A stretch of DNA of 64,000 nt, from assembly GCF_003991155.1 (NCBI RefSeq), contig NZ_CP031295.1. One strand, 5' to 3'. Of the stretch, positions 3,337 to 60,143 are shown one piece after another. Both the position numbers and the translations under genes were made by a program. Within the stretch, counting starts at the first letter, position 1, and each line of letters starts with the position of its first letter. The notes under the pieces were generated by a model that searched no databases, had not been told where the DNA came from, and saw only the letters and a list, made by a program, of their open reading frames with translations. This DNA is from Escherichia coli (GTDB taxonomy: Bacteria > Pseudomonadota > Gammaproteobacteria > Enterobacterales > Enterobacteriaceae).

Positions 3337-5964
3337 GTGAATAACCCACTTGAGGCCGTCACTCAGGCGGTTAACTCCCTCGTCACAGCACTGAAACTGC
3401 CTGACGAATCCGCAAAGGCCAATGAAGTTCTGGGCGAAATGAGCTTCCCGCAGTTCAGCCGTCTGCTGCCGTACCGTGATTACAACCAGGAATCCGGTCT
3501 GTTCATGAATGACACCACGATGGGCTTTATGCTGGAAGCCATCCCCATCAATGGGGCGAATGAGTCCATTGTGGAGGCCCTCGATCACATGCTGCGCACC
3601 AAACTGCCGCGCGGTATTCCGTTGTGTATCCATCTGATGTCCAGTCAGCTGGTTGGTGACAGGATTGAATACGGGCTGCGTGAGTTCTCCTGGTCAGGTG
3701 AACAGGCTGAACGGTTTAACGCCATTACCCGGGCCTATTATATGAAAGCGGCAGCGACACAGTTTCCGCTGCCGGAGGGGATGAATCTGCCCCTGACCCT
3801 GCGCCATTACCGGGTGTTTATCTCGTACTGTTCTCCTTCGAAGAAAAAAAGCCGGGCCGACATTCTGGAAATGGAAAACCTGGTGAAAATCATCCGGGCG
3901 TCGTTACAGGGGGCCAGTATCACCACACAGACGGTGGATGCACAGGCCTTTATCGATATTGTCGGGGAGATGATTAACCATAACCCGGACTCCCTGTATC
4001 CGAAAAGACGTCAGCTGGACCCGTATTCTGATCTGAATTATCAGTGTGTGGAGGACAGTTTTGATCTGAAAGTCCGGGCTGATTACCTGACGCTGGGCCT
4101 GCGTGAGAACGGCAGGAACAGCACGGCCCGCATCCTGAATTTCCATCTGGCCCGTAACCCGGAAATCGCCTTCCTGTGGAACATGGCCGACAACTACAGC
4201 AACCTGCTGAACCCGGAACTGTCCATCTCCTGTCCGTTCATCCTGACGCTGACTCTGGTGGTGGAAGACCAGGTGAAAACCCACAGCGAAGCCAACCTGA
4301 AGTACATGGACCTGGAGAAAAAGTCGAAGACCTCCTATGCCAAATGGTTTCCGTCCGTGGAGAAAGAGGCGAAGGAGTGGGGGGAACTGCGTCAGCGGCT
4401 GGGCTCCGGTCAGTCCTCTGTCGTGTCCTACTTCCTCAACATCACAGCATTCTGCAAGGACAATAATGAAACGGCGCTGGAAGTGGAGCAGGACATCCTG
4501 AACAGCTTCCGTAAAAACGGTTTTGAGCTGATTTCACCGCGCTTTAACCACATGCGCAATTTCCTGACCTGCCTGCCCTTTATGGCCGGGAAAGGGCTGT
4601 TTAAACAGTTGAAAGAGGCCGGAGTGGTTCAGCGCGCAGAGAGCTTTAATGTTGCCAACCTGATGCCGTTAGTGGCGGATAACCCCCTGACACCGGCAGG
4701 TCTGCTGGCACCCACCTACCGTAACCAGCTGGCGTTTATCGATATTTTCTTCCGGGGGATGAATAACACCAACTACAACATGGCGGTCTGTGGCACCTCC
4801 GGGGCCGGTAAAACCGGGCTGATACAGCCACTTATCCGCAGCGTGCTGGACTCCGGAGGCTTTGCCGTGGTGTTTGACATGGGGGATGGATACAAGTCCC
4901 TGTGTGAGAACATGGGCGGGGTGTATCTGGACGGTGAAACCCTGCGTTTTAACCCGTTTGCGAACATCACCGATATTGACCAGTCAGCGGAGCGTGTCCG
5001 TGACCAGTTGTCGGTGATGGCCAGCCCCAACGGTAACCTGGATGAAGTGCATGAAGGTCTGCTGCTGCAGGCGGTCAGGGCCTCCTGGCTGGCTAAAAAG
5101 AACAGGGCGCGCATCGATGATGTGGTGGATTTCCTGAAAAACGCCCGTGATAACGACCAGTATGTCGAGTCACCGACCATCCGCAGCCGTCTGGATGAAA
5201 TGATTGTCCTGCTGGATCAATATACCGCCGGCGGCACTTACGGCCGGTATTTTAACTCTGATGAGCCGTCCCTGCGGGATGATGCGAAAATGGTGGTGCT
5301 GGAGCTGGGCGGACTGGAAGACCGTCCGTCACTGCTGGTTGCGGTGATGTTCAGCCTCATTATTTACATCGAGAACAGGATGTACCGCACGCCGCGTAAC
5401 CTCAAAAAACTGAACGTCATTGATGAGGGATGGCGTCTGCTGGACTTCAAAAATCACAAGGTCGGTGAGTTTATTGAGAAAGGTTACCGTACCGCCCGCC
5501 GTCATACCGGTGCCTATATCACCATCACACAGAACATCGTCGACTTTGACTCTGACAAGGCCTCCAGTGCTGCCCGCGCGGCATGGGGTAACTCCTCCTA
5601 CAAAATTATCCTCAAACAGAGTGCGAAGGAGTTCGCGAAATACAACCAGCTGTATCCGGACCAGTTCCTGCCACTGCAGCGTGACATGATTGGTAAGTTC
5701 GGTGCGGCCAAAGATCAGTGGTTCAGTTCCTTCCTGCTGCAGGTGGAAAACCATTCCTCCTGGCACCGTCTGTTTGTGGACCCGTTAAGCCGCGCCATGT
5801 ACAGCTCTGACGGCCCGGATTTTGAGTTTGTGCAGCAGAAGCGTAAAGAGGGGCTGAGTATTCATGAGGCGGTATGGCAGCTGGCGTGGAAGAAGTCAGG
5901 GCCGGAGATGGCTTCGCTGGAAGCCTGGCTGGAAGAACATGAGAAATACAGGAGTGTGGCATGA
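3337..5964 (+). CDS. traC: TraC, VirB4-like T4SS ATPase (GTG start)
   Basis: 875-aa ORF, Walker A-like GTSGAGKT, size and position as in F. Confidence 0.9.
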   Translation: MNNPLEAVTQAVNSLVTALKLPDESAKANEVLGEMSFPQFSRLLPYRDYNQESGLFMNDTTMGFMLEAIPINGANESIVEALDHMLRTKLPRGIPLCIHLMSSQLVGDRIEYGLREFSWSGEQAERFNAITRAYYMKAAATQFPLPEGMNLPLTLRHYRVFISYCSPSKKKSRADILEMENLVKIIRASLQGASITTQTVDAQAFIDIVGEMINHNPDSLYPKRRQLDPYSDLNYQCVEDSFDLKVRADYLTLGLRENGRNSTARILNFHLARNPEIAFLWNMADNYSNLLNPELSISCPFILTLTLVVEDQVKTHSEANLKYMDLEKKSKTSYAKWFPSVEKEAKEWGELRQRLGSGQSSVVSYFLNITAFCKDNNETALEVEQDILNSFRKNGFELISPRFNHMRNFLTCLPFMAGKGLFKQLKEAGVVQRAESFNVANLMPLVADNPLTPAGLLAPTYRNQLAFIDIFFRGMNNTNYNMAVCGTSGAGKTGLIQPLIRSVLDSGGFAVVFDMGDGYKSLCENMGGVYLDGETLRFNPFANITDIDQSAERVRDQLSVMASPNGNLDEVHEGLLLQAVRASWLAKKNRARIDDVVDFLKNARDNDQYVESPTIRSRLDEMIVLLDQYTAGGTYGRYFNSDEPSLRDDAKMVVLELGGLEDRPSLLVAVMFSLIIYIENRMYRTPRNLKKLNVIDEGWRLLDFKNHKVGEFIEKGYRTARRHTGAYITITQNIVDFDSDKASSAARAAWGNSSYKIILKQSAKEFAKYNQLYPDQFLPLQRDMIGKFGAAKDQWFSSFLLQVENHSSWHRLFVDPLSRAMYSSDGPDFEFVQQKRKEGLSIHEAVWQLAWKKSGPEMASLEAWLEEHEKYRSVA

Positions 5965-6347
5965 GTTCAACGCAGAAACCCGCCGACGTCACGGCAGAAC
6001 AACGCATCCACTGGTGGTGGATGGTGCCGGGATGCCTGGCAATGGTGTTACTGAACGCAGCCGTCAGTTACGGCATTGTCAGACTGAACGCACCGGTGAC
6101 TGTCGCCTTCAACATGAAACAGACCGTGGATGCGTTTTTTGACAGCGCCAGTCAGAAACAACTGTCAGAAGCACAGTCAAAAGCCCTTTCAGCGCGTTTT
6201 AACACGGCACTGGAAGCCAGCCTGCAGGCGTGGCAGCAGAAACACCACGCGGTCATTCTGGTGTCGCCTGCTGTGGTACAGGGGGCACCGGATATCACCC
6301 GGGAAATCCAGCAGGATATTGCCCGGCGAATGAGGGCGGAACCATGA
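5961..6347 (+). CDS. trbI: TrbI
   Basis: 128-aa ORF with N-terminal TM helix, overlaps traC stop and traW start. Confidence 0.7.
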   Translation: MSSTQKPADVTAEQRIHWWWMVPGCLAMVLLNAAVSYGIVRLNAPVTVAFNMKQTVDAFFDSASQKQLSEAQSKALSARFNTALEASLQAWQQKHHAVILVSPAVVQGAPDITREIQQDIARRMRAEP

Positions 6348-6976
6348 GATGCCGGGGGCTGATTGCCCTGCTGATATGGGGGCAGAGTGTGGCCGCCGCC
6401 GATCTTGGTACCTGGGGCGATCTGTGGCCGGTAAAGGAGCCGGACATGCTGACGGTGATCATGCAGCGCCTGACGGCACTGGAGCAGTCCGGTGAGATGG
6501 GCCGGAAAATGGATGCCTTTAAGGAGCGGGTGATCCGCAACAGTCTGCGGCCCCCTGCCGTGCCCGGTATCGGACGCACGGAGAAATACGGCAGCCGGTT
6601 GTTTGACCCGTCCGTCAGACTGGCTGCGGATATCCGGGATAACGAAGGGCGGGTGTTTGCCCGTCAGGGTGAAGTGATGAATCCGCTGCAGTATGTTCCT
6701 TTTAACCAGACGCTGTATTTCATCAATGGCGATGATCCGGCGCAGGTGGCCTGGATGAAACGCCAGACGCCGCCCACACTGGAGAGCAAAATTATCCTCG
6801 TGCAGGGCAGTATCCCGGAGATGCAGAAAGCGCTGGACAGCCGTATTTACTTTGACCAGAACGGTGTGCTCTGCCAGCGCCTCGGCATTGATCAGGTCCC
6901 GGCACGGGTGAGCGCCGTTCCCGGCGATCGCTTCCTGAAGGTGGAATTTATTCCGGCAGAGGAGGGCAGAAAATGA
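6344..6976 (+). CDS. traW: TraW pilus assembly protein (internal ATG at 6344 used instead of the longer ORF start at 6230)
   Basis: MRCRGLIALLIWGQSVAA signal peptide; ATGA overlap with trbI stop. Confidence 0.8.
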   Translation: MRCRGLIALLIWGQSVAAADLGTWGDLWPVKEPDMLTVIMQRLTALEQSGEMGRKMDAFKERVIRNSLRPPAVPGIGRTEKYGSRLFDPSVRLAADIRDNEGRVFARQGEVMNPLQYVPFNQTLYFINGDDPAQVAWMKRQTPPTLESKIILVQGSIPEMQKALDSRIYFDQNGVLCQRLGIDQVPARVSAVPGDRFLKVEFIPAEEGRK

Positions 6977-7965
6977 AGCGAGGCCTGTGGCTGCTGATGT
7001 TCTTCCTTCTCGCCGGTCATGTCCCTGCGGCGTCTGCGGATTCTGCCTGTGAGGGGCGTTTTGTAAACCCGATCACGGATATCTGCTGGAGCTGTATTTT
7101 CCCGCTCTCGCTGGGCAGTATCAAAGTCAGTCAGGGTAAGGTCCCCGACACGGCGAACCCGTCGATGCCCATTCAGATTTGTCCGGCACCGCCGCCGCTG
7201 TTCAGGCGTATCGGGCTGGCCATTGGTTACTGGGAGCCGATGGCGCTGACGGACGTCACCCGGTCACCGGGATGCATGGTTAACCTGGGCTTCAGCCTGC
7301 CGGCTTTTGGTAAAACGGCACAGGGAACGGCGAAAAAGGATGAGAAGCAGGTGAACGGGGCGTTCTATCACGTTCACTGGTACAAATACCCGCTGACGTA
7401 CTGGCTGAACATCATCACATCGCTGGGCTGTCTGGAAGGTGGTGACCTGGATATCGCTTATCTTTCTGAAATTGACCCCACCTGGACGGACAGCAGCCTG
7501 ACCACCATTCTCAATCCGGAAGCTGTCATCTTTGCCAATCCGATAGCACAGGGGGCCTGTGCAGCAGATGCCATTGCCAGCGCCTTTAATATGCCTCTCG
7601 ATGTTCTGTTCTGGTGTGCCGGTTCGCAGGGCAGTATGTACCCGTTCAATGGCTGGGTGAGTAATGAGTCCAGTCCGTTGCAGTCCTCCCTGCTGGTCAG
7701 TGAACGCATGGCGTTCAAGCTGCACCGTCAGGGCATGATTATGGAAACCATCGGGAAAAATAACGCCGTCTGTAATGAATATCCGTCCCCAATCCTGCCC
7801 AAAGAACGCTGGCGTTACCAGATGGTGAATATGTATCCGGACAGCGGGCAGTGCCACCCGTTCGGGCGCAGCGTGACCCGCTGGGAAACCGGGAAAAATC
7901 CGCCCAACACAAAGAAAAACTTCGGCTACCTGATGTGGCGTAAACGTAACTGTGTCTTCCTGTGA
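6973..7965 (+). CDS. traU: TraU pilus assembly/DNA transfer protein
   Basis: 330-aa ORF with signal peptide, overlaps traW stop. Confidence 0.85.
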   Translation: MKRGLWLLMFFLLAGHVPAASADSACEGRFVNPITDICWSCIFPLSLGSIKVSQGKVPDTANPSMPIQICPAPPPLFRRIGLAIGYWEPMALTDVTRSPGCMVNLGFSLPAFGKTAQGTAKKDEKQVNGAFYHVHWYKYPLTYWLNIITSLGCLEGGDLDIAYLSEIDPTWTDSSLTTILNPEAVIFANPIAQGACAADAIASAFNMPLDVLFWCAGSQGSMYPFNGWVSNESSPLQSSLLVSERMAFKLHRQGMIMETIGKNNAVCNEYPSPILPKERWRYQMVNMYPDSGQCHPFGRSVTRWETGKNPPNTKKNFGYLMWRKRNCVFL

Positions 7966-7972
7966 GGTGAAT

Positions 7973-8606
7973 GATGAAGCTGAGTATGAAATCTCTGGCA
8001 GCACTGCTGATGATGCTGAACGGGGCGGTTATGGCGTCAGAAAACGTGAACACTCCTGAAAACCGCCAGTTCCTGAAGCAGCAGGAAAATTTAAGCAGAC
8101 AACTGCGTGAAAACCTGACCATCAGCTGAAAGCCGGGCGGAGAAGCAGGTGCTGGAAACCCCTTCAGCGTTCAGATAACCATTTCTGGATGAGCTGGTTC
8201 GTAAACAGCAGGCTTCGCAGGACGGGAAACCCGGCAGGGTGCTCTGTATTTTGTGTCGTTTTCCATTCCCGAAGAGGGGCTGAAACGAATGCTGGGCGAA
8301 ACCCGGCACTACGGTATACCCGCCACACTGCGGGGCATGGTGAACAATGACCTGAAGACCACCGCTGAAGCCGTGCTGTCCCTGGTGAAAGACGGCGCGA
8401 CTGATGGTGTTCAGATCGACCCGACGCTGTTTTCACAGTACGGCATTCGCAGTGTACCGGCACTGGTGGTGTTCTGCAGTCATGGATACGACATCATCCG
8501 GGGAAACCTGCGGGTCGGCCAGGCGCTGGAGAAAGTGGCCGCCACGGGTGACTGCCGGCAGGTGGCTCATGATTTACTGGCAGGGAAAGGAGATTCCGGG
8601 AAATGA
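7973..8606 (+). pseudogene. trbC: trbC, disrupted by several frameshifts (signal-peptide N-terminus 7973-8129 stops early; TrbC-like C-terminus in another frame 8253-8606)
   Basis: N-terminal MMKLSMKSLAALLMMLNGAVMA ORF ends after 52 codons; recognisable TrbC C-terminal sequence resumes in a different frame; indels sit at homopolymer runs. Confidence 0.6.
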
Positions 8607-50525: not shown

Positions 50526-51992
50526 TCATTCGGGATGCCTGGAGGCCAGATCCATCACTCGTGTTAACCCGGACGGACGATCAATGCCCAATTTAGTTAA
50601 AATATTCGAGATATAATTATGAGCATCAAGTTCAACTCTGATATCCCTTGCTGCTTCGATTATTTCTAAATATTCGCCACCCAATCCGTCCAGTGGGACA
50701 TTTGTAATAAGATAATGAATGTATTGTTCAGGCTTAACCCCATTTGGGAGATTAAATTGTTTTACTTTTCCTTCCGCTGCCGCTTTTAACTCATAAGTTC
50801 GTGATTCTGTGCCGGTGAAAACTTTATCACGAGCAGTTTTCTTTTCATTTTCTGTGGAATATTTATCGCCATCAAGAATATAAAGTTTACCAGATAGATT
50901 GTCACCACGAATAAGGGTACTGGCAAGTAGAGTGAATGCGTTTGAAGCTGCGCCAAATTTAAATATTTTTACATATTTGCTGGCCTTAAGTGAAGAACAT
51001 ATTTTATTTATTATGGCAACAGCTAAGTCATCTTCTACATATATTTCAATAGGCGTCGTTGATTCACCTGTTAATCTGTTTATAGCATCAGGTTTTGTTT
51101 CTTCAAATGAATAACTACGGCCTTGAATGTTTACGACGTGTCTTATATTTATCTTGTCTGATAAAGTGGTTATCATTTCTCTATGGGTAGTAAAGATGAT
51201 TTGTTTGTTTTTATCTTTGGCATGAGATGATATGACTTCTATTAACTTTTTCAATGCTTCGTCATGCAACAATAAATCTAATTCATCAATTAATATTAAG
51301 GCGTTCTTGTCCGCTTTCAATATTGTTTCCAGAATTAAAAATATCTTTTGCTCTCCTGCGCTCATACTCAATGATGAGTAGGCCAGTCCCCCTGACTCAA
51401 CTCCAATCAATATTTTTCCATTGGGTTGTTGATGCTGATTGAAACTTGTGTATGGTTTATTAAGTATATAGGAGGCGTAATGAAGAATGTTTGTTATTAA
51501 ATCATTACTGACACTGCTGGTTTCATACTGAATATTATTCTTTTTTTCTGATTCTATTATAGGAACACATTTATCAATGCCAAGATAGTAAACTTCTCTT
51601 AAAGGACGACGAGCATAAATCTGAATCCATCGTGAGCCTCGAATATCTGCTTTTCCATAATTTTTCAATTCATTTTCAATCATTACCCCATCTTTACGAT
51701 AAGTTAAATTTACAATGAAGTCACTGCCGTTCCATTCAGCATGTGGGCTGCGTGGAAAAAAATGCATTAACCGATGGTCTTCACCGGGGAAACCTTCTTC
51801 AGGCATGTATATGCTTGCTATAGCATGGAGTATTGTTGATTTTCCGCTTCCATTTGGACCTAAAATTGCGGTTAACGCATGAGGTTTAAAAATAATCTCG
51901 TTTAATCCATTTATACATTTTAGTTTGTTAATTTTAATGGAGTTCAAGACTTGACCAGTAATGGTTTTTTTATTTTTTTCTGCCATTTTCAA
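50526..51992 (-). CDS. ABC-type ATPase fused to TOPRIM/DUF4435-like domain (OLD-family or fused PARIS-like candidate)
   Basis: Walker A GPNGSGKST, signature-like LSMSAGEQK, Walker B LILIDELDLLLHDE, H-loop TTH; C-terminal VEDD ... LYILDGDK consistent with TOPRIM E and DxD. Confidence 0.6.
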   Translation of the reverse strand: MKMAEKNKKTITGQVLNSIKINKLKCINGLNEIIFKPHALTAILGPNGSGKSTILHAIASIYMPEEGFPGEDHRLMHFFPRSPHAEWNGSDFIVNLTYRKDGVMIENELKNYGKADIRGSRWIQIYARRPLREVYYLGIDKCVPIIESEKKNNIQYETSSVSNDLITNILHYASYILNKPYTSFNQHQQPNGKILIGVESGGLAYSSLSMSAGEQKIFLILETILKADKNALILIDELDLLLHDEALKKLIEVISSHAKDKNKQIIFTTHREMITTLSDKINIRHVVNIQGRSYSFEETKPDAINRLTGESTTPIEIYVEDDLAVAIINKICSSLKASKYVKIFKFGAASNAFTLLASTLIRGDNLSGKLYILDGDKYSTENEKKTARDKVFTGTESRTYELKAAAEGKVKQFNLPNGVKPEQYIHYLITNVPLDGLGGEYLEIIEAARDIRVELDAHNYISNILTKLGIDRPSGLTRVMDLASRHPE

Positions 51993-52248
51993 ATCCTAGC
52001 ATTATGTTGGGGGGATTCACCATGTAATTCAGAAACATATAACTGTGAACAGGGGATATATCAAATCCTTTTAATATTCTATTTGGCACAGTATTCTACA
52101 TCAGGCCTCTTTTATGCTACAGACTTTTTGAGATGTCTGTAATTTTAGACTTAATGTTATGACTGATCATATCTCCTATCCACTGGTGGCGCAGGAAAGT
52201 TAACCAGCTGCCACCATGGGATGATGTGTAAACCGTGCTGGTATGTTT

Positions 52249-52839
52249 TTACGGGGTGACGCTTTCATTAACCTGTACACGAACCTCCATTCCGGCATCG
52301 TGACAGGCCTGCAGCCACTGCGCCACTTCCAGCGGATCGCCCTCCAGGCGTACCACCCTGCCTTCTTTATTCCATAACTGCAGACAGGTGCTGCCGTCGA
52401 GACGTACCACAAAATCCCCACGGCAGGCCTGATACGTTATGCCGTTCAGCTGCACCGCCAGATCAGTGGCAGAAGTGCCGTCTGCGGGCAGACCTGCTGC
52501 CGGGACCAGCGGCAGTACGACGACTTCTGCCGCACGCTGTTCTGCCCGGAGGCGGTCCTGTTCTGCCAGCAGCAGAGGCTGTGCCACGGCCCGGCCGGCG
52601 TCCGTCAGCTCGACAGCCAGCTGCAGATTCGGGGCGCGCAGGGTACGCAGCCAGCCGGCATCCTCCAGACGACGGCAGGAGGCGCGCAGGTTTGGCCCGT
52701 AGACCGGGGCTTCCCCGCTTCGCTCCAGCACCCGTTCCAGGTCCCGCGTCAGCACGGGGCCCGGCCGTTTTTCATCAAGCGCAGCCAGCACAATCAGCAC
52801 TCTCCGCTGCAGTGGCGACGGTCGGCGGCTCTGGGTCAT
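52249..52839 (-). CDS. Hypothetical protein with possible N-terminal winged-helix domain (GC-rich)
   Basis: 196-aa ORF; start overlaps upstream gene stop (TAATG); family not recognised. Confidence 0.35.
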   Translation of the reverse strand: MTQSRRPSPLQRRVLIVLAALDEKRPGPVLTRDLERVLERSGEAPVYGPNLRASCRRLEDAGWLRTLRAPNLQLAVELTDAGRAVAQPLLLAEQDRLRAEQRAAEVVVLPLVPAAGLPADGTSATDLAVQLNGITYQACRGDFVVRLDGSTCLQLWNKEGRVVRLEGDPLEVAQWLQACHDAGMEVRVQVNESVTP

Positions 52840-53096
52840 TACCTGTCATCCTCCGGCCAGATGAGGTTTCTGAGGCGCTGAAAGTCGGCGTCAATGAGCT
52901 CCTGTCTCTTTATGGCATTCATTGAGGCATAGCCATTTATGGCCAGTTCATGCCAGAAGATCAGCACGGCTCCGGCTTTGGCTGACTCGCAGAGATAAAT
53001 CGCGCCCTGGCTGTCCAGATTGCATTCCCGGATGCGTTTTTCCGCAAACCGGGTCAGTTGTTCATAGCTGAGTGAAAACACCCTTTCTTCATCCAT
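52839..53096 (-). CDS. Hypothetical small protein, first gene of two-gene cassette
   Basis: 85-aa ORF translationally coupled to 52249-52839. Confidence 0.3.
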   Translation of the reverse strand: MDEERVFSLSYEQLTRFAEKRIRECNLDSQGAIYLCESAKAGAVLIFWHELAINGYASMNAIKRQELIDADFQRLRNLIWPEDDR

Positions 53097-53449
53097 CCTG
53101 CACGCTCCATCTGATAATGTACTGACAGGTAAAAATAATATCCTGCATGATTTGTGTGCTCATGATTTCTGATAATATCAGATATTGTTTTATCATCAAT
53201 GATGAAAACCATATCTGATATGATTTTATATATATTTCTTAATTATCATATCATTTGCGTCTTTTCTGCCGCGCAGATCCAGTTTCCGGCTAAGTCGGAT
53301 CGACCTAATCTTTGTTTCTGATATGAACACCTCGGAGAGGTGTAAGCAATGGTATAAACGAAATGTATTATGTATCTGCATCACAGCATGCGGGCACATT
53401 TTGCGGAAGGATATGAATCCCCCCGGAATAACTGGCAAAGGACAGATAA

Positions 53450-55588
53450 ATGGACATTGAAATACGCCACTGCAATAACATCGTACGAGCACATATCACC
53501 CTCACTGCCGATAAACTGAACATTAAGTTTGCGCCAAATGGTACTGGAAAAAGTACGCTGTCACGGGCCATAAGCTGTGCGGCGCGGGACGACATTCAGG
53601 GACTACAGGCACTGATGCCCTTCCGGCTGCGCGGAGAAAACCCCGATAGCACCGGGCCCATTGTCATCGGTGCTGACGGGATTGGGGACGTGATGTGCTT
53701 CAACGAGGAGTACGTCAGTCAGTTTACGTTCCAACCGGACGAGCTCATCAGTGATAGCTTTAATATTCTTATCCGCAATCAAGCCCATGCGGAAAGAGAG
53801 CGTGAAATAGAAGAAATGACGCAAAAGATCCGGGCTGTTTTCACGGATCACACTGAGCTGAACTCTCTGATAGACCATCTACAGGAACTCAGTAATGCTT
53901 TCAGATCAACCAGTTCCGGGATTTCACGTTCTTCAACCGGCATGAGAGGTCTGTCAGGCGGAAATAAAATACACCACATTCCGGCTGGTCTTGAGAACTA
54001 TCAACCCTACATCCGCAGTGAACGCCGCGTGGAATGGATTGACTGGCAGACAAAGGGACTCGAGTTTTCGCCCCTTTCGGATGGCTGCTGTCCGTTCTGT
54101 ACCGGTGATATCACGGGAAAGGAAGCACAAATTCGCCAAGTCAGAGAGGAATACGATAAATCCACCATTAAAAACCTGACCGCTATCATCAGACTGGTGG
54201 AAAACCTCGGTAATTACCTGACGGAGAGCGCCAGAGAACGCCTTCTGGCCATTACTATGCTTCAGAACGGTCCGGAAGCCGAACATATCGAGTACCTAGT
54301 GGCGTTGAAACGCCAGACCGATACGCTGACAGAGAAACTCACTGCGCTGAGAGGCCTGAATGTTTTCAGCCTGCAGGAACAGCAGAACGTTCGGGAGGTG
54401 CTCACTGCCAGGTTGATTGACCTGCAGTTCTTCCCTGATCTGCAATCCGAACTCATGCAGGGGATCACCGACAGACTGAACGCGGCCCTTATGGACCTGA
54501 TAAACCTTGCCGGACCGCTGCAGGGAAAAATTAACCGGCACCGGGACAGCATGATCCGGCTGATCGCACAGCACAAAACAAACATCAATAATTTCCTCAC
54601 TTATGCAGGCTATAAATACAGGGTGGATATAGCCGGCGAGGGAGAGCAGAGAAAACTCAGGCTACGACACATAGATTTTGACGGGTACGTCAGCGGCGGT
54701 AGCCAGCATCTCAGCTATGGAGAACGGAACGCCTTTGCGATTGTGTTATTCATGTATGAATGCCTGTCAAAAAACCCGGGACTGATTATCCTTGATGATC
54801 CCATATCTTCTTTTGATAAAAACAAGAAGTTTGCCATTCTTGAAATGCTGTTCAGACGTGCAAGTGGTGAATGCCTGAAGAACCGGACTGTACTTATGCT
54901 GACGCATGACGTGGAGCCTGTGATTGACACGCTGAAGTCAGTCAGAAGGTTGTTCAGTAATCAGGTGACCGCCTCCTGCCTGCGCCTGTCTGCTGGAGTC
55001 ATAGAAGAATTACCTGTTAACGACGGCGATATCATGACATTCATGCAGATCTGCAAATCCATCACCGCGTCAGCAGACTGTGAGGAGATCATTAAGCTCA
55101 TCTATCTTCGTCGCTACTTTGAAATCGTTGACGAACGTGGTGATGCTTATCAGCTTCTATCCAATCTATTCCATCGACGCGTCGTCCCGCTGGATTATCG
55201 CGAGCCTGCCGCTGCGGGCTCGGGCTATCCCAAAATGGCTCCTGAGAAAATTCAGCAGGCCTTGCGGGATATCCGGGAGTATGTGGACAGTTTTGATTAC
55301 CCGCGACTTCAGGCTCTCGTCAGCAGCCCAGATGAAATAAAAAACCTGTACCGTCGCTGTCGTAACGGCTATGAAAAACTGCAGGTATTCCGTTTACTGG
55401 AACTGGATCAGGACCATCCGGTAATACGAAAATTCGTTAACGAAACGTACCACATTGAAAATGAGTTCATCTGTCAACTAGATCCGTCCAGATTCGATCT
55501 CATCCCGGAGTACGTGATTATGGAATGTGACAAGCTCATCGCCCTGCCACCGGCAGCAAACCAGAGCTCGGTTGCCCGTATCGCTTGA
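53450..55588 (+). CDS. Rad50/SMC-like ABC ATPase with CxxC hook and C-terminal extension (RloC/PrrC-like anticodon-nuclease candidate)
   Basis: Walker A APNGTGKST at N-terminus, CCPFC ~200 aa in, signature LSYGERNAF, Walker B LIILDDP, H-loop LMLTHD ~430-480, then ~230 aa C-terminal region. Confidence 0.5.
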   Translation: MDIEIRHCNNIVRAHITLTADKLNIKFAPNGTGKSTLSRAISCAARDDIQGLQALMPFRLRGENPDSTGPIVIGADGIGDVMCFNEEYVSQFTFQPDELISDSFNILIRNQAHAEREREIEEMTQKIRAVFTDHTELNSLIDHLQELSNAFRSTSSGISRSSTGMRGLSGGNKIHHIPAGLENYQPYIRSERRVEWIDWQTKGLEFSPLSDGCCPFCTGDITGKEAQIRQVREEYDKSTIKNLTAIIRLVENLGNYLTESARERLLAITMLQNGPEAEHIEYLVALKRQTDTLTEKLTALRGLNVFSLQEQQNVREVLTARLIDLQFFPDLQSELMQGITDRLNAALMDLINLAGPLQGKINRHRDSMIRLIAQHKTNINNFLTYAGYKYRVDIAGEGEQRKLRLRHIDFDGYVSGGSQHLSYGERNAFAIVLFMYECLSKNPGLIILDDPISSFDKNKKFAILEMLFRRASGECLKNRTVLMLTHDVEPVIDTLKSVRRLFSNQVTASCLRLSAGVIEELPVNDGDIMTFMQICKSITASADCEEIIKLIYLRRYFEIVDERGDAYQLLSNLFHRRVVPLDYREPAAAGSGYPKMAPEKIQQALRDIREYVDSFDYPRLQALVSSPDEIKNLYRRCRNGYEKLQVFRLLELDQDHPVIRKFVNETYHIENEFICQLDPSRFDLIPEYVIMECDKLIALPPAANQSSVARIA

Positions 55589-55749: not shown

Positions 55750-56166
55750 TTACTTCACCCAGTCTTCCAGCACCAGGTCAGGCACTCGCTCAAATTCTCT
55801 TGTATTATTCGTTACCAGTATCGCCCCGGCGGCGATGGCGTGCCCGGCAATCGCCGTGTCGTTCGGGCCGATCGGCGTCCCGGCCAGCCGCAGTGCCACT
55901 TTAATCTTCGTGGTGGCGTCTACTGCGGCGCGATCCCAGGGCAGGATGGCATCGAGGCGGGCGCAGAATTCATCGACCAGTTGGACGTGACGTGGTGAGG
56001 CCTTTGGGCCGGTAGCCCCGAAGCGCATTTCAGAGTAGGTGATGGCCGAGACCACTATACGGTGGCCGCGTAGCACCGCCTGCTCCAGACGCTTCAGGAC
56101 GGCTTCTGGCTGTTCACGCATGATGAACGAGCAGATACAGGTATCAAGCATATAAGTCTTGTTCAC
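55750..56166 (-). CDS. vapC: VapC/VagD PIN-domain toxin
   Basis: 138 aa MNKTYMLDTCICSFIMREQ...; overlaps antitoxin gene. Confidence 0.85.
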   Translation of the reverse strand: MNKTYMLDTCICSFIMREQPEAVLKRLEQAVLRGHRIVVSAITYSEMRFGATGPKASPRHVQLVDEFCARLDAILPWDRAAVDATTKIKVALRLAGTPIGPNDTAIAGHAIAAGAILVTNNTREFERVPDLVLEDWVK

Positions 56167-56688: not shown

Positions 56689-56979
56689 ATGAGCGTCAAA
56701 ATCACAGGTTTAGACAAAATGCAGAAACAGCTAAAAGAGGTTGAGAGAGCAACAGAGGCATTAAACGGAAGTTATGATGTCCACTTCGATGCTAACGATC
56801 CTGTCAGCATTGAGAACGCGATTCAGGAAGCCTATTCCATGGTGTACGAACGCGCTTCTGGTTATGCCACTAATCCGATGGTCAGCCCATTAATCGAACA
56901 CATGAAAGAAAATCTGCGCCAACAGATTCTGGACAGAGCAGAACAACAAAGACAGGAGAGCGGGCAGGATGGCAATTGA
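56689..56979 (+). CDS. Hypothetical small protein (96 aa), first gene of operon with TIR-like protein
   Basis: ORF with 11-nt overlap onto downstream gene start; no recognised motif. Confidence 0.35.
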   Translation: MSVKITGLDKMQKQLKEVERATEALNGSYDVHFDANDPVSIENAIQEAYSMVYERASGYATNPMVSPLIEHMKENLRQQILDRAEQQRQESGQDGN

Positions 56980-57868
56980 TATCTTTCAGTCACTTAAAAA
57001 TTGCGTATTCGACCTTCAGCGCGCTGACGTTCAGAACTATCAGCAACCTCTTAAGCAATTGGCCCGGCTCTTGAACTCAGAGAATCTGCAGTCAGTTAAT
57101 GCACATCTGACCCGCAATGTTGAACTTGATACCTTTCTGGCCAGGAGTGAAGATACTGAATCCAGCATGGCTGGTTCCGCTGTTCTACAGTGGCCTGATG
57201 AGCCCGCTGATATTTTGGGCCTGAAGTTGCTGCTGATCGAGAAAATGGCAGACGATAACAATTTTTCCTTTAATTTCTGTCATACATTTTTCTATGATCG
57301 AAACATTATTGAATCCATTCGAAAATTCACGTCGTCATTAGTTGCCCCGTTCGTGCGCGATTACCAGTTGTATGTGGAAAACCAACACGATCCTGAGCCT
57401 GCAGTGTTTCGGCCGGTTTCCCGAAAAATTTTTATTGTTCATGGCCATGATAATGATGCCCTTCAGTCTGTTGCCCGTTTTATATCCCGGATAGGTCTTG
57501 AGGAAATCATTCTTTCAGAACGTCCTGACGGCTCCAGGACGATTATCGAGAAATTTGAAGCAGAGTCAGGGGATGTCAGTTTTGCCATCGTGCTGATGAC
57601 GCCCGACGATAGCGGCAGTGCTCTGGCATCTGAAAGCACACGTCTCCGCGCACGCCAGAATGTCCTGTATGAGCTCGGATATTTCGCCGGGAAGCTTGGA
57701 CGCGGGAAAGTACTTGTACTCAGGAAGGGAGATATCGAAATCCCTTCAGATCTTGCCGGGGTTCTCTATACCGAGCTTGATGAGCATGGTGGATGGAAAC
57801 GCAAACTGCTGAGTGAGCTTGCGTATGCCGGTGTTCCTTTTGACAAGGATAAAGCATTAAGCGCCTGA
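56969..57868 (+). CDS. Protein with C-terminal TIR-like nucleotide-binding domain
   Basis: C-terminal ~140 aa with KIFIVHGHD ... FAIVLMTPDD ... NVLYELGYFAGKLGRGKV pattern resembling bacterial TIR-like domains; N-terminal ~150 aa unrecognised; RBS aggagag upstream. Confidence 0.5.
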   Translation: MAIDIFQSLKNCVFDLQRADVQNYQQPLKQLARLLNSENLQSVNAHLTRNVELDTFLARSEDTESSMAGSAVLQWPDEPADILGLKLLLIEKMADDNNFSFNFCHTFFYDRNIIESIRKFTSSLVAPFVRDYQLYVENQHDPEPAVFRPVSRKIFIVHGHDNDALQSVARFISRIGLEEIILSERPDGSRTIIEKFEAESGDVSFAIVLMTPDDSGSALASESTRLRARQNVLYELGYFAGKLGRGKVLVLRKGDIEIPSDLAGVLYTELDEHGGWKRKLLSELAYAGVPFDKDKALSA

Positions 57869-57917: not shown

Positions 57918-60143
57918 TCAGTCGTCATTTTCCAGCGCTGTTTTGAGCGCTTCCTGCTCCGGAGTCAGCTCGTTGCCGGACAGCATAACCTTCAACTTCT
58001 CTTCGACTGCTGGCCAGTCATCAAAGAACGGACTGACCTGGTCACGCGCAATCCGGCGATATGCCCCTCGGTGGGAGCTGAAGACACTGGTCTGTAATCG
58101 TATCAACAGGTTAACAAGGCCTTCATCAGTGGTAGTAACTTCTCTGACCCATTGCTTCACGGTTTCACCTGAACTCATGTCTCTCCAGGCGTAGAGATAC
58201 CCGAGAAGAGACTTGCGCAGGAGAAGCTGTTGCTGAAGTTCTGGTTGATTCATACGTTCCGCAAACCTGTCACGCAACCGTTCCGTAATATCGCGACTGA
58301 AAAGAGCGTCTGAAGGCGAAGGTACTGCATTCTGAGCAAGTCCATGTTCCCAGATAAGATCCCGCATAAAATCGGCTATCCAGAACGGCGAAGCACCCGT
58401 AACGATCAGTTTTTCCATAAGCGTGATCGTTCTGGTCTCATCAATATCCTGCATATGCTTCAGCAGATGCCGTACAACCTCATTAATGGCCATTTCACGC
58501 AGGGAAAACCATGGGTTACGGATACTGAAGCGAGTGCTCACCTCATCGGTGTGATCGAAGAAAAAATGAACCAGTCCTGCGCACTCTTCGAAATTACGTT
58601 CTCTTATCAGGCCTGGAGTCAGTCTGCTCAGTATATGTTCAAACCAGGTTCCGGACAGACTGCCCACACTGTTGATTTTTGAGAGCAGCAATTCAGAAAG
58701 CTGCTGCTGTTTTTCCGATACGCCAGCCTGTTCAAAAAGCTGTCTGAAGAATTCAGGTGGCAGAACATTCTGTGGTGAGGAGAAGGCAAAATAATATCGC
58801 CAGTGCGTCAGGCTGCTGAGTCGTTTACCGGTCGTCTGGATATGACGAAAATCCTCACTGACGGGCTCAAAAAGATTCAGATATTCATCATTATGTCCAC
58901 TGATACCTGGGATCCAGTCTGCAAGTGTCAGAAACGAGTCTGCATTTGATGCCCTGAACGTCTTCATACATCTGATAAGCCCCTCCCGGAAGTCTGCTTT
59001 CTCTCCGTCAGAAAGCATACCCTGACCGGTTTCAATCACGGACCGTTCTGTCAGGTAATGCTCTGTCCAGTCATACAGAGCCGGGTTTGTCACCCGTATA
59101 AGCTGAAGCAGGCACAAATCAGGGAAATAAACAAAATCCCGCATCCCCGGATAAAGAAAAATCAGGGAATTAATGGCCTGATGGATTTCCCGTGGCGTCG
59201 AAAGTGCGGCACCATAGGTATCAGTCACCGCGATGAGATCCCTTACCATTCCAGAGTCTGGCGGTTGATTATTAATTTGCTGATATAGAGCCTCAGCCCG
59301 CTGGCGAAATTCATTACGTAAATCAAAGGCTTCAGGTCGGGGTAATTTAAAACTAAGCTGAATGATTTTCTGGAGATAACGGCTGCCATCTTCGATATTC
59401 AGCGCATGTTCAACGGCATGAGTGATAATCTGCCTGTCATAACAGAGAATATGGGTAAAGCGGGGCAGATCGGCTACTGCACGCACAAGCCTGAACACTT
59501 CCGCCACCTGGGATGGCTCCAGTCGGTCCAGATCATCCATGACAACAATGAACTTCAGATCCAGACTCACCAGTTGTCCTGCAATTTCAGCCCGAAGCTT
59601 TGTCGTGGTTTTCTGATCAACAGCCAGACGGCTGTCTGAAAATACCTTTATTCCGCCTGCTATCCAGTTAATAATGCTGGAAAACTGTCCGATATATTGA
59701 ACCAGTGGAAGGACGCGCGATGAAGTATCCTGAGCATACTCAATCACTTTTTGAGCTTCCGGTGACAACAGATATTTACGCCAGAGCTTTTTGAAGCCCT
59801 TCGGGGGATAGCGTATTTCCATTTCCTGCTGGATAACCGTGGCAACCGGAAGAAAGAGCGCTTCAACCGGACTGCCGCCACTCAGCCAGGGAGAAATATG
59901 CAGCACATGCGTGTGAGCATCTTTTTTCAGGGCAAGGTTTCTCAGGATCAGATTAAGGAGGCTTGTTTTACCCGATCCCCATGCACCTTCTATTCCGACA
60001 ACATTTGAAGCCTCCAGAGGAAGAGTAAGGATGGAACGGGATATATTTTCTGCGATATTACCGAAACCGTATCGATCCTCAGGTACATCTTCAACTGCCG
60101 CATCAAGCCCTTTCTGGTTCCACAGCTGCCTCAGTATCTTCAT
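57918..60143 (-). CDS. KAP-family P-loop NTPase
   Basis: 741 aa; Walker A GIEGAWGSGKTSLLNLI, Walker B FIVVMDDLDRLEP, large helical C-terminal region. Confidence 0.7.
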   Translation of the reverse strand: MKILRQLWNQKGLDAAVEDVPEDRYGFGNIAENISRSILTLPLEASNVVGIEGAWGSGKTSLLNLILRNLALKKDAHTHVLHISPWLSGGSPVEALFLPVATVIQQEMEIRYPPKGFKKLWRKYLLSPEAQKVIEYAQDTSSRVLPLVQYIGQFSSIINWIAGGIKVFSDSRLAVDQKTTTKLRAEIAGQLVSLDLKFIVVMDDLDRLEPSQVAEVFRLVRAVADLPRFTHILCYDRQIITHAVEHALNIEDGSRYLQKIIQLSFKLPRPEAFDLRNEFRQRAEALYQQINNQPPDSGMVRDLIAVTDTYGAALSTPREIHQAINSLIFLYPGMRDFVYFPDLCLLQLIRVTNPALYDWTEHYLTERSVIETGQGMLSDGEKADFREGLIRCMKTFRASNADSFLTLADWIPGISGHNDEYLNLFEPVSEDFRHIQTTGKRLSSLTHWRYYFAFSSPQNVLPPEFFRQLFEQAGVSEKQQQLSELLLSKINSVGSLSGTWFEHILSRLTPGLIRERNFEECAGLVHFFFDHTDEVSTRFSIRNPWFSLREMAINEVVRHLLKHMQDIDETRTITLMEKLIVTGASPFWIADFMRDLIWEHGLAQNAVPSPSDALFSRDITERLRDRFAERMNQPELQQQLLLRKSLLGYLYAWRDMSSGETVKQWVREVTTTDEGLVNLLIRLQTSVFSSHRGAYRRIARDQVSPFFDDWPAVEEKLKVMLSGNELTPEQEALKTALENDD

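Follow-up and report, generated by a model that had tools for sequence, protein, structure and literature searches.

The window analysed here, a 64,000-nucleotide stretch of Escherichia coli DNA, harbors a cassette of two adjacent minus-strand genes preceded by a conserved control region:

52839 to 53096, minus strand: ydfA, first gene of the pair, encoding an 85-aa acidic protein predicted to form a three-helix bundle
52249 to 52839, minus strand: ydeA, encoding a 196-aa protein with a predicted winged helix and a family-specific β-rich C-terminal domain
53097 to 53299, minus strand: conserved control region upstream of ydfA, with a promoter and repeated palindromic motifs that are putative YdeA operators

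The initial annotation had described two translationally coupled genes of 85 and 196 aa at this locus, and this description is borne out: the ORFs overlap by one base (TAATG), with a GGAGG about 10 nt upstream of the ydeA ATG. Other plasmids show a 4-nt overlap (ATGA), and the coupling is therefore conserved. Both ORFs correspond to CDSs annotated as hypothetical proteins in the IncI1 plasmid R64 (NC_005014.1), to which the cassette region is 100% identical, and several sources name their products YdfA (85 aa) and YdeA (196 aa). The same genes are found as named hypothetical genes in the IncI1 plasmids R64, ColIb-P9 and pUA1135 and in the ColV plasmid pS88, for which transcripts of both were detected (PMC3438092). 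The literature that we found on ydfA/ydeA assigns them no function, fold, operator or distribution; the gene names are already known, and the regulator reading and the conserved control region appear to be new here.

The predicted structure of YdeA (mean pLDDT 87) consists of a winged helix (residues 9-78), a long helix (80-104), a poorly ordered, length-variable linker (105-125) and a compact β-rich C-terminal domain (127-190). The N-terminal winged helix, previously proposed as a possibility, is confident in this predicted fold, which has the winged helix-turn-helix arrangement of MarR/PadR/HxlR-like repressors; the domain is MarR/PadR-like, with TubR and viral F-93-type winged helices among its structural neighbours. 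Nevertheless, YdeA matches none of the Pfam models of MarR/PadR/HxlR-type repressors and, unlike them, has a β-rich C-terminal domain restricted to its own family and a coupled small partner. A profile search of PDB sequences with this C-terminal domain gave no match, nor did a Pfam scan of 18 sequences of it, and its profile recovered from the protein database only YdeA proteins and truncated remnants, in no other architecture. YdfA is a predicted three-helix bundle (pLDDT 86) with generic structural matches only, and a profile search against PDB sequences returned nothing.

Neither protein matched anything above cut-off in Pfam, NCBIfam, PADLOC or PHROGs, be it a toxin, antitoxin or defence family. 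Below threshold, the Pfam matches of YdeA are limited to AbiEi_4 (14.3 bits vs a cut-off of 25, E=0.045) and PaaX, and its best sequence match is PHROG 19460, of function unknown (E=2e-7). Membership of a known defence system was rejected, no PADLOC model being matched by YdfA or YdeA at cut-off; in PADLOC-DB v2, YdfA has no matches and YdeA has only JetA (E=0.0036), because of its wHTH. YdfA does not accompany YdeA relatives of 45% identity or less. At a locus with a 54% identical YdeA (L015), an 88-aa partner protein shares with YdfA just two short motifs, seen by eye, and hhalign does not support kinship of the two (probability 1%). A long YdeA form of 417 aa, with a C-terminal extension of about 220 aa that has no family match, occurs at three further loci (L008-L010); its extension was compared with the genes downstream of ydeA in Klebsiella plasmids and does not look like a counterpart of them.

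Aligning the sequence upstream of ydfA from R64, IncF, Klebsiella IncFII and a fourth context, we see conservation over about 200 bases and then an abrupt end of homology; this region of about 200 bp is kept in eight loci, and the sequence beyond it differs. The elements found in it, together with a hairpin at the other end of the module, are as follows:

53172 to 53199, minus strand: σ70-like promoter TTGATG-16-TATTAT with TG extension, putative PydfA, the best coding-strand match of a promoter scan
53165 to 53191, no strand: overlapping palindromes covering the -10 hexamer, ATATCAGATAT at 53175-53185 and TCTGATA-A-TATCAGA
53205 to 53227, no strand: palindrome AAAACCATATC-T-GATATGATTTT, containing ATATCTGATAT at 53211-53221
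53245 to 53253, minus strand: distal TGATATGAT box, overlapping a weak promoter-like site oriented towards the divergent gene
52178 to 52222, no strand: hairpin with 13-nt arms and a 19-nt loop, within about 75 nt after the ydeA stop, at the 3' edge of the conserved module

The position of PydfA agrees with the BProm promoter and the predicted transcription start, 69 nt upstream of ydfA, given for the IncI1 plasmid pUA1135 (PMC12111858). Four TGATATGAT-type boxes are located at about -157, -117, -83 and -42 from the ydfA ATG, spaced by 34-41 bp, and the -10 hexamer (53172-53177) adjoins the palindrome at 53175-53185, with 3 bp common to both. The perfect palindrome ATATCNGATAT (ATATC-N-GATAT) has two sites, 36 bp apart, in the 64-kb window vs 0.01 expected, and these two are the only ones in the complete 120.8-kb R64. 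One-mismatch ATATC-N-GATAT sites elsewhere in R64 are at chance level (4 found vs about 3.2 expected), and a search of the complete plasmid for a plasmid-wide YdeA regulon returned none. Similarly, allowing one mismatch in the loose TGATATGAT motif gives no enrichment across the window (17 found vs 14 expected); significance is limited to the strict palindrome and the local clustering. An Rfam scan of 51800-53600 matched no family.

The palindrome site at 53165-53191 is kept in all eight close loci and also in L015, where an exact ATATCTGATAT and two GATATGAT boxes are found upstream. A small Rep3 plasmid (L016), whose YdeA is 45% identical and is not accompanied by YdfA, presents TGATATGATTT...AAATCATA at -48, and the motif is absent for YdeA relatives at 33% identity or less, in which the recognition-helix sequence is different. 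It is mainly because the motifs are co-conserved with ydeA that we infer, from sequence, that YdeA would bind the palindromes at its own promoter. The TGATATGAT boxes also resemble extended -10 elements and could be multiple promoters instead of operators.

Regarding the edges of the module, the stretch after ydeA is kept between plasmids with ibfA and plasmids with a convergent DUF6404 gene, and no T-run follows the hairpin. The distal end of the control region (53268-53290) is also GC-rich, reading GCCGGAAAC(T/C)GGATCTGCGCGGC, and plasmid homology breaks just outside these two GC-rich elements (52178-52222 and 53268-53290), which may be recombination boundaries of the module. A fifth box, AGATATGAT, is found at 52166-52174, just past the hairpin, about 170 bp upstream of ibfA and near the region of the predicted own promoter of that gene (PMC12111858); it occurs in ibfA-type plasmids only and could be a candidate second YdeA site.

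In the window, the following genes are found on the two sides of the module:

50526 to 51992, minus strand: ibfA, ABC ATPase-TOPRIM protein (PADLOC HEC-04, E=4e-42), downstream cargo
53450 to 55588, plus strand: 712-aa ABC-type ATPase, PADLOC candidate PDC-S06 (E=5e-286), divergent and variable cargo outside the conserved module
55750 to 56166: vapC, with vapB just downstream, minus strand
about 56969 to 57868: TIR-like 'nucleotide-binding protein', PDC-S35 (E=2e-65)
about 57918 to 60143: PifA homologue (E=3e-290)

The cassette is found within a dense defence island of R64 (IbfA/HEC-04, PDC-S06, VapBC, PDC-S35 and PifA), which agrees with a published account in which the repZ-rfsF stretch is hypervariable and carries ibfA and pifA (PMC8004404). 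Across about 49-60 kb the window is identical to R64 but for two substitutions. A C>T change at 50526 converts IbfA Trp487 from TGG to TGA, with loss of the last 32 residues compared to the 518-aa R64 protein; this premature stop may be an inactivating or attenuating mutation, or a sequencing error.

Among roughly a dozen annotated plasmids compared, the constant part is the pair with its control region, and both sides vary. Downstream on the same strand we find IbfA and a ProQ/FinO-like protein in R64, pS68 and H8 plasmid I; a 350-aa hypothetical protein and a ProQ-like protein in pSH271-2; a 164-aa hypothetical protein followed by Hha in Klebsiella; and, behind the 417-aa YdeA of L008-L010, a DpdC-like DUF6884 protein and a secreted SNase. 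In several plasmids same-strand cargo is absent and convergent DUF6404/colicin Ia immunity or fimbrial genes follow. On the divergent side, the PDC-S06 ATPase of R64-type plasmids is replaced elsewhere by a RES-domain protein, a HEPN nuclease, the TIR-like PDC-S35 with a DUF4238 protein, or ParDE, or else the integrase/ParA/ParM backbone follows directly. In a plasmid-wide count, the ydeA-ibfA junction is common to 687 plasmids only and the ydfA-PDC-S06 junction to only 429 of the 2,560 cassette-bearing plasmids. The L009 locus (5744-8407) is a tightly overlapping four-gene operon of ydfA, ydeA-long, the DUF6884 gene and a gene for a signal-peptide SNase-family nuclease; the DUF6884 protein of the L008-L010 operon matches PADLOC DpdC models (E=7e-41), and vapBC is found upstream as in R64.

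The cassette matches 4,115 of the 72,556 PLSDB plasmids, the 2,560 mentioned above over at least 80% of its length. Cassette-bearing plasmids belong to IncI, IncK and IncF; most of them are conjugative and come from Escherichia, Klebsiella, Salmonella and Shigella. Together with its upstream region, the cassette is present in 2,119 of 5,426 complete E. coli genomes (39%), which hold 2,852 matching places on plasmids and 46 on chromosomes; YdeA was also looked for in phages, none of which carries it. Clustered at 50%, the YdeA family comes down to a small set of 220 representatives, of which many are fragments. Comparison of alleles gives dS values up to about 1.0 and dN/dS ratios of 0.16-0.41 for ydeA and 0.32-0.48 for ydfA; both are thus genuine genes, subject to purifying selection and long resident on these plasmids.

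The initial annotation had considered both genes markedly more GC-rich than their AT-rich flanks and read this as a sign of recent acquisition from a different host background. The contrast is real for ydeA, which has a GC content of 0.651 (0.79, 0.48 and 0.69 at the three codon positions, GC3 0.685), and does not extend to ydfA, which at 0.516 has the composition of the window mean (0.521). Measured against the window in sliding windows, ydeA alone ranks within the highest 3.6% (92 of 2,537 windows) and the whole cassette, with 0.611, is matched by 158 of the 1,264 windows of 848 bp. The sharp local contrast is mostly owed to the AT-rich neighbours, namely ibfA (0.352) and the two intergenic regions (0.38-0.39). 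In the unrelated context of L015, 600-bp windows over ydeA reach 0.62-0.66 vs 0.37-0.58 around it, so GC-richness belongs to the gene family and is not due to fresh transfer. Recent horizontal acquisition was rejected given this family-wide composition, the distribution over plasmids of several Inc groups, the divergence between alleles and the purifying selection; besides, it is the flanks that vary and the cassette that is constant.

Many plasmids hold only the 3' part of ydeA (cassette query positions 1-298), and N-terminally truncated YdeA proteins of 81-138 aa are found, some in clusters of hundreds of members. In one published case, a 4,165-bp gene replaces the sequence from within ydeA to rfsF (PMC8004404). 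Breakpoints of cargo exchange appear to fall frequently in ydeA, and the gene, being often found truncated, is dispensable.

Variation within the module itself is mosaic. IncIγ/K1 and IncK2 plasmids have operators and a ydeA that are 93-100% identical to R64, and a ydfA middle (aa ~25-65) for which DNA identity drops to 58-60%. The Klebsiella loci show 77-90% identity for ydfA and the winged helix and only 37-65% for the C-terminal domain of YdeA. The winged helix, the operators and the YdfA termini are conserved, and the YdfA middle and the YdeA C-terminal domain are variable, a division compatible with a constant core for DNA binding and interaction surfaces that can change. In the small sample of eight loci, the two YdfA allele classes follow neither YdeA type nor cargo, which argues weakly against a tight specific interface at the YdfA middle.

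Experimental data for the operon are available from the sister plasmid pUA1135, where RT-PCR placed ydfA, ydeA, ibfA and the proQ-like gene on one transcript and where deletion of ibfA alone or of the whole operon restored plating of phage UAB_Phi20 (PMC12111858). Efficiency of plating (EOP) was 0.05 with ibfA alone on its own promoter and 0.01 with the whole operon, values obtained with different constructs in a comparison not designed to test the role of the pair (PMC12111858). ibfA alone defends, and ydfA-ydeA is therefore not required for IbfA defence. No difficulty was reported in deleting or recloning the entire operon (PMC12111858). HEC-04, the family of IbfA, has been described as a single-protein ABC ATPase-TOPRIM defence that is toxic on induction (bioRxiv 10.1101/2024.01.29.577857); it is because of this toxicity of its homologues that tight control of such cargo makes sense.

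We consider it somewhat better than an even bet that ydfA-ydeA and the approximately 200 bp upstream constitute a winged-helix repressor module that regulates itself and stands at the head of an operon with variable cargo in the accessory region of the plasmid. On this reading the module is self-contained and belongs to the IncI/IncK/IncF plasmid backbone. YdeA, probably dimeric and held together by the long helix 80-104, would use its winged helix to bind the ATATC-N-GATAT / TGATATGAT palindromes around and beside the ydfA -10 hexamer, and binding would repress its own transcription along with that of any genes further down the same transcript. For R64-type plasmids, the repressed cargo would be IbfA, a defence nuclease toxic when overexpressed, and the ProQ/FinO-like protein. 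YdfA, made in step with YdeA via translational coupling, might be a small partner that modulates YdeA, the weakest step of this scheme, and the family-specific C-terminal domain of YdeA may be the part that binds a partner or a signal. Of the two possibilities raised in the initial annotation, a regulator-effector or a toxin-antitoxin pair, the regulator part of the former is upheld by the predicted winged helix and the conserved promoter/palindrome region, and the latter gains no support. Against the repressor reading, ibfA has its own predicted promoter (PMC12111858) and works without the pair. Some plasmids have no same-strand cargo downstream, hence driving cargo cannot be the only role of the module.

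A winged-helix autoregulator is an ordinary kind of element, and the genes already had names. At the same time, few uncharacterised modules are as widespread on plasmids of clinical importance, and the pair stands at the head of an operon with a proven phage-defence gene. Were YdeA to control this operon, it would set the balance between the cost of IbfA and its protection, with a possible influence on phage typing and on phage-therapy outcome in Salmonella and E. coli with IncI or IncF plasmids. The module also marks a recombination boundary where defence genes are swapped.

A more ambitious version of the autoregulated-repressor model is an infection- or transfer-sensing switch of the plasmid defence hotspot, like the BrxR/CapW regulators: YdeA would keep toxic cargo off, and YdfA and/or the YdeA C-terminal domain would detect a phage- or conjugation-derived signal and release repression. 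We regard this as unlikely. It would suit the defence genes around the module, both those of R64 (IbfA/HEC-04, PDC-S06, VapBC, PDC-S35 and PifA) and the RES, HEPN and DUF4238 proteins that stand beside it elsewhere, as well as the toxicity of over-induced HEC-04 and the mosaic change confined to the YdfA middle and the C-terminal domain of YdeA, with winged helix and operators conserved. The slightly better protection by the whole operon (EOP of 0.01 vs 0.05 for ibfA alone, PMC12111858) points the same way, but these values come from different constructs and the comparison was not made for that purpose. Moreover, the cargo is not always defence (the Hha operon, the DpdC-like and SNase genes, or nothing), and the divergent cargo genes arrive with their own upstream stretch of about 150 bp. 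YdeA may resemble the BrxR/CapW (wHTH-WYL) regulators in combining a winged helix with an extra C-terminal domain, beside interchangeable defence genes and with cargo that is toxic if over-expressed. It differs from them in that neither a WYL nor another known sensor domain is detected by sequence and in that the module cargo is not always defence-related; a YdfA-like partner is not known from BrxR/CapW systems. On the outside chance that the pair is such a portable sensor switch anchoring a defence/accessory hotspot, with winged helix and operators silencing cargo such as IbfA and with the YdfA middle and the YdeA C-terminal domain recognising triggers, it would represent a new class of defence regulator, present in about 40% of complete E. 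coli genomes.

We find it highly improbable that YdeA has a DNA-organising or maintenance role, coating the four-repeat array in a TubR/ParR-like or nucleoid-associated complex that would serve plasmid segregation, resolution or silencing and not classical gene regulation. The idea is suggested by the four similarly spaced repeats (34-41 bp apart), by the TubR and viral F-93-type winged helices among the structural neighbours, by the integrase/ParA/ParM maintenance block that usually adjoins the module and by the Klebsiella operon running on into hha. However, one repeat directly adjoins the -10 hexamer, which is the usual operator layout, no dedicated motor NTPase is linked to the pair, the plasmids already have ParA and ParM systems, and ydeA is often truncated.

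The toxin-antitoxin or addiction module suggested in the initial annotation, in which one protein would be the toxin and the other its DNA-binding, autoregulating antitoxin, is the least probable reading and was rejected: two small translationally coupled genes on plasmids, near vapBC, parDE and ccdAB, a palindrome of the autoregulatory kind typical of type II TA operons and the weak sub-threshold AbiEi_4 match of the winged helix speak for it, but no toxin family is recognised in Pfam, NCBIfam, PADLOC or PHROGs, neither protein shows a known toxin fold, the soluble helical bundle of YdfA is generic, no catalytic family matches the C-terminal domain of YdeA, distant YdeA relatives occur without YdfA so that the pair is not always together, natural plasmids often keep ydfA with a truncated ydeA, and the operon was deleted and recloned without reported difficulty (PMC12111858). 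In size (about 200 aa) and in its N-terminal winged helix followed by a C-terminal domain, YdeA is comparable to AbiEi, the antitoxin of the AbiE type IV TA/abortive infection system, which autoregulates through inverted repeats as YdeA putatively would. Unlike a true AbiEi, its AbiEi_4 match stays below the Pfam cut-off, and no AbiEii-type (DUF1814) nucleotidyltransferase is found beside the pair in the annotated contexts examined.

Finally, a 2026 GWAS of IncK2 plasmids reported a chicken-associated plasmid 'ydeA', which was read as the L-arabinose MFS exporter encoded by the chromosomal E. coli ydeA (PMC12987596). The IncK2/Z plasmid pSH271-2 (L012) carries at 5421-6011 the gene for the 196-aa winged-helix YdeA, a protein unrelated to the MFS pump, and the IncK2 'ydeA' of that study may be a case of name collision.
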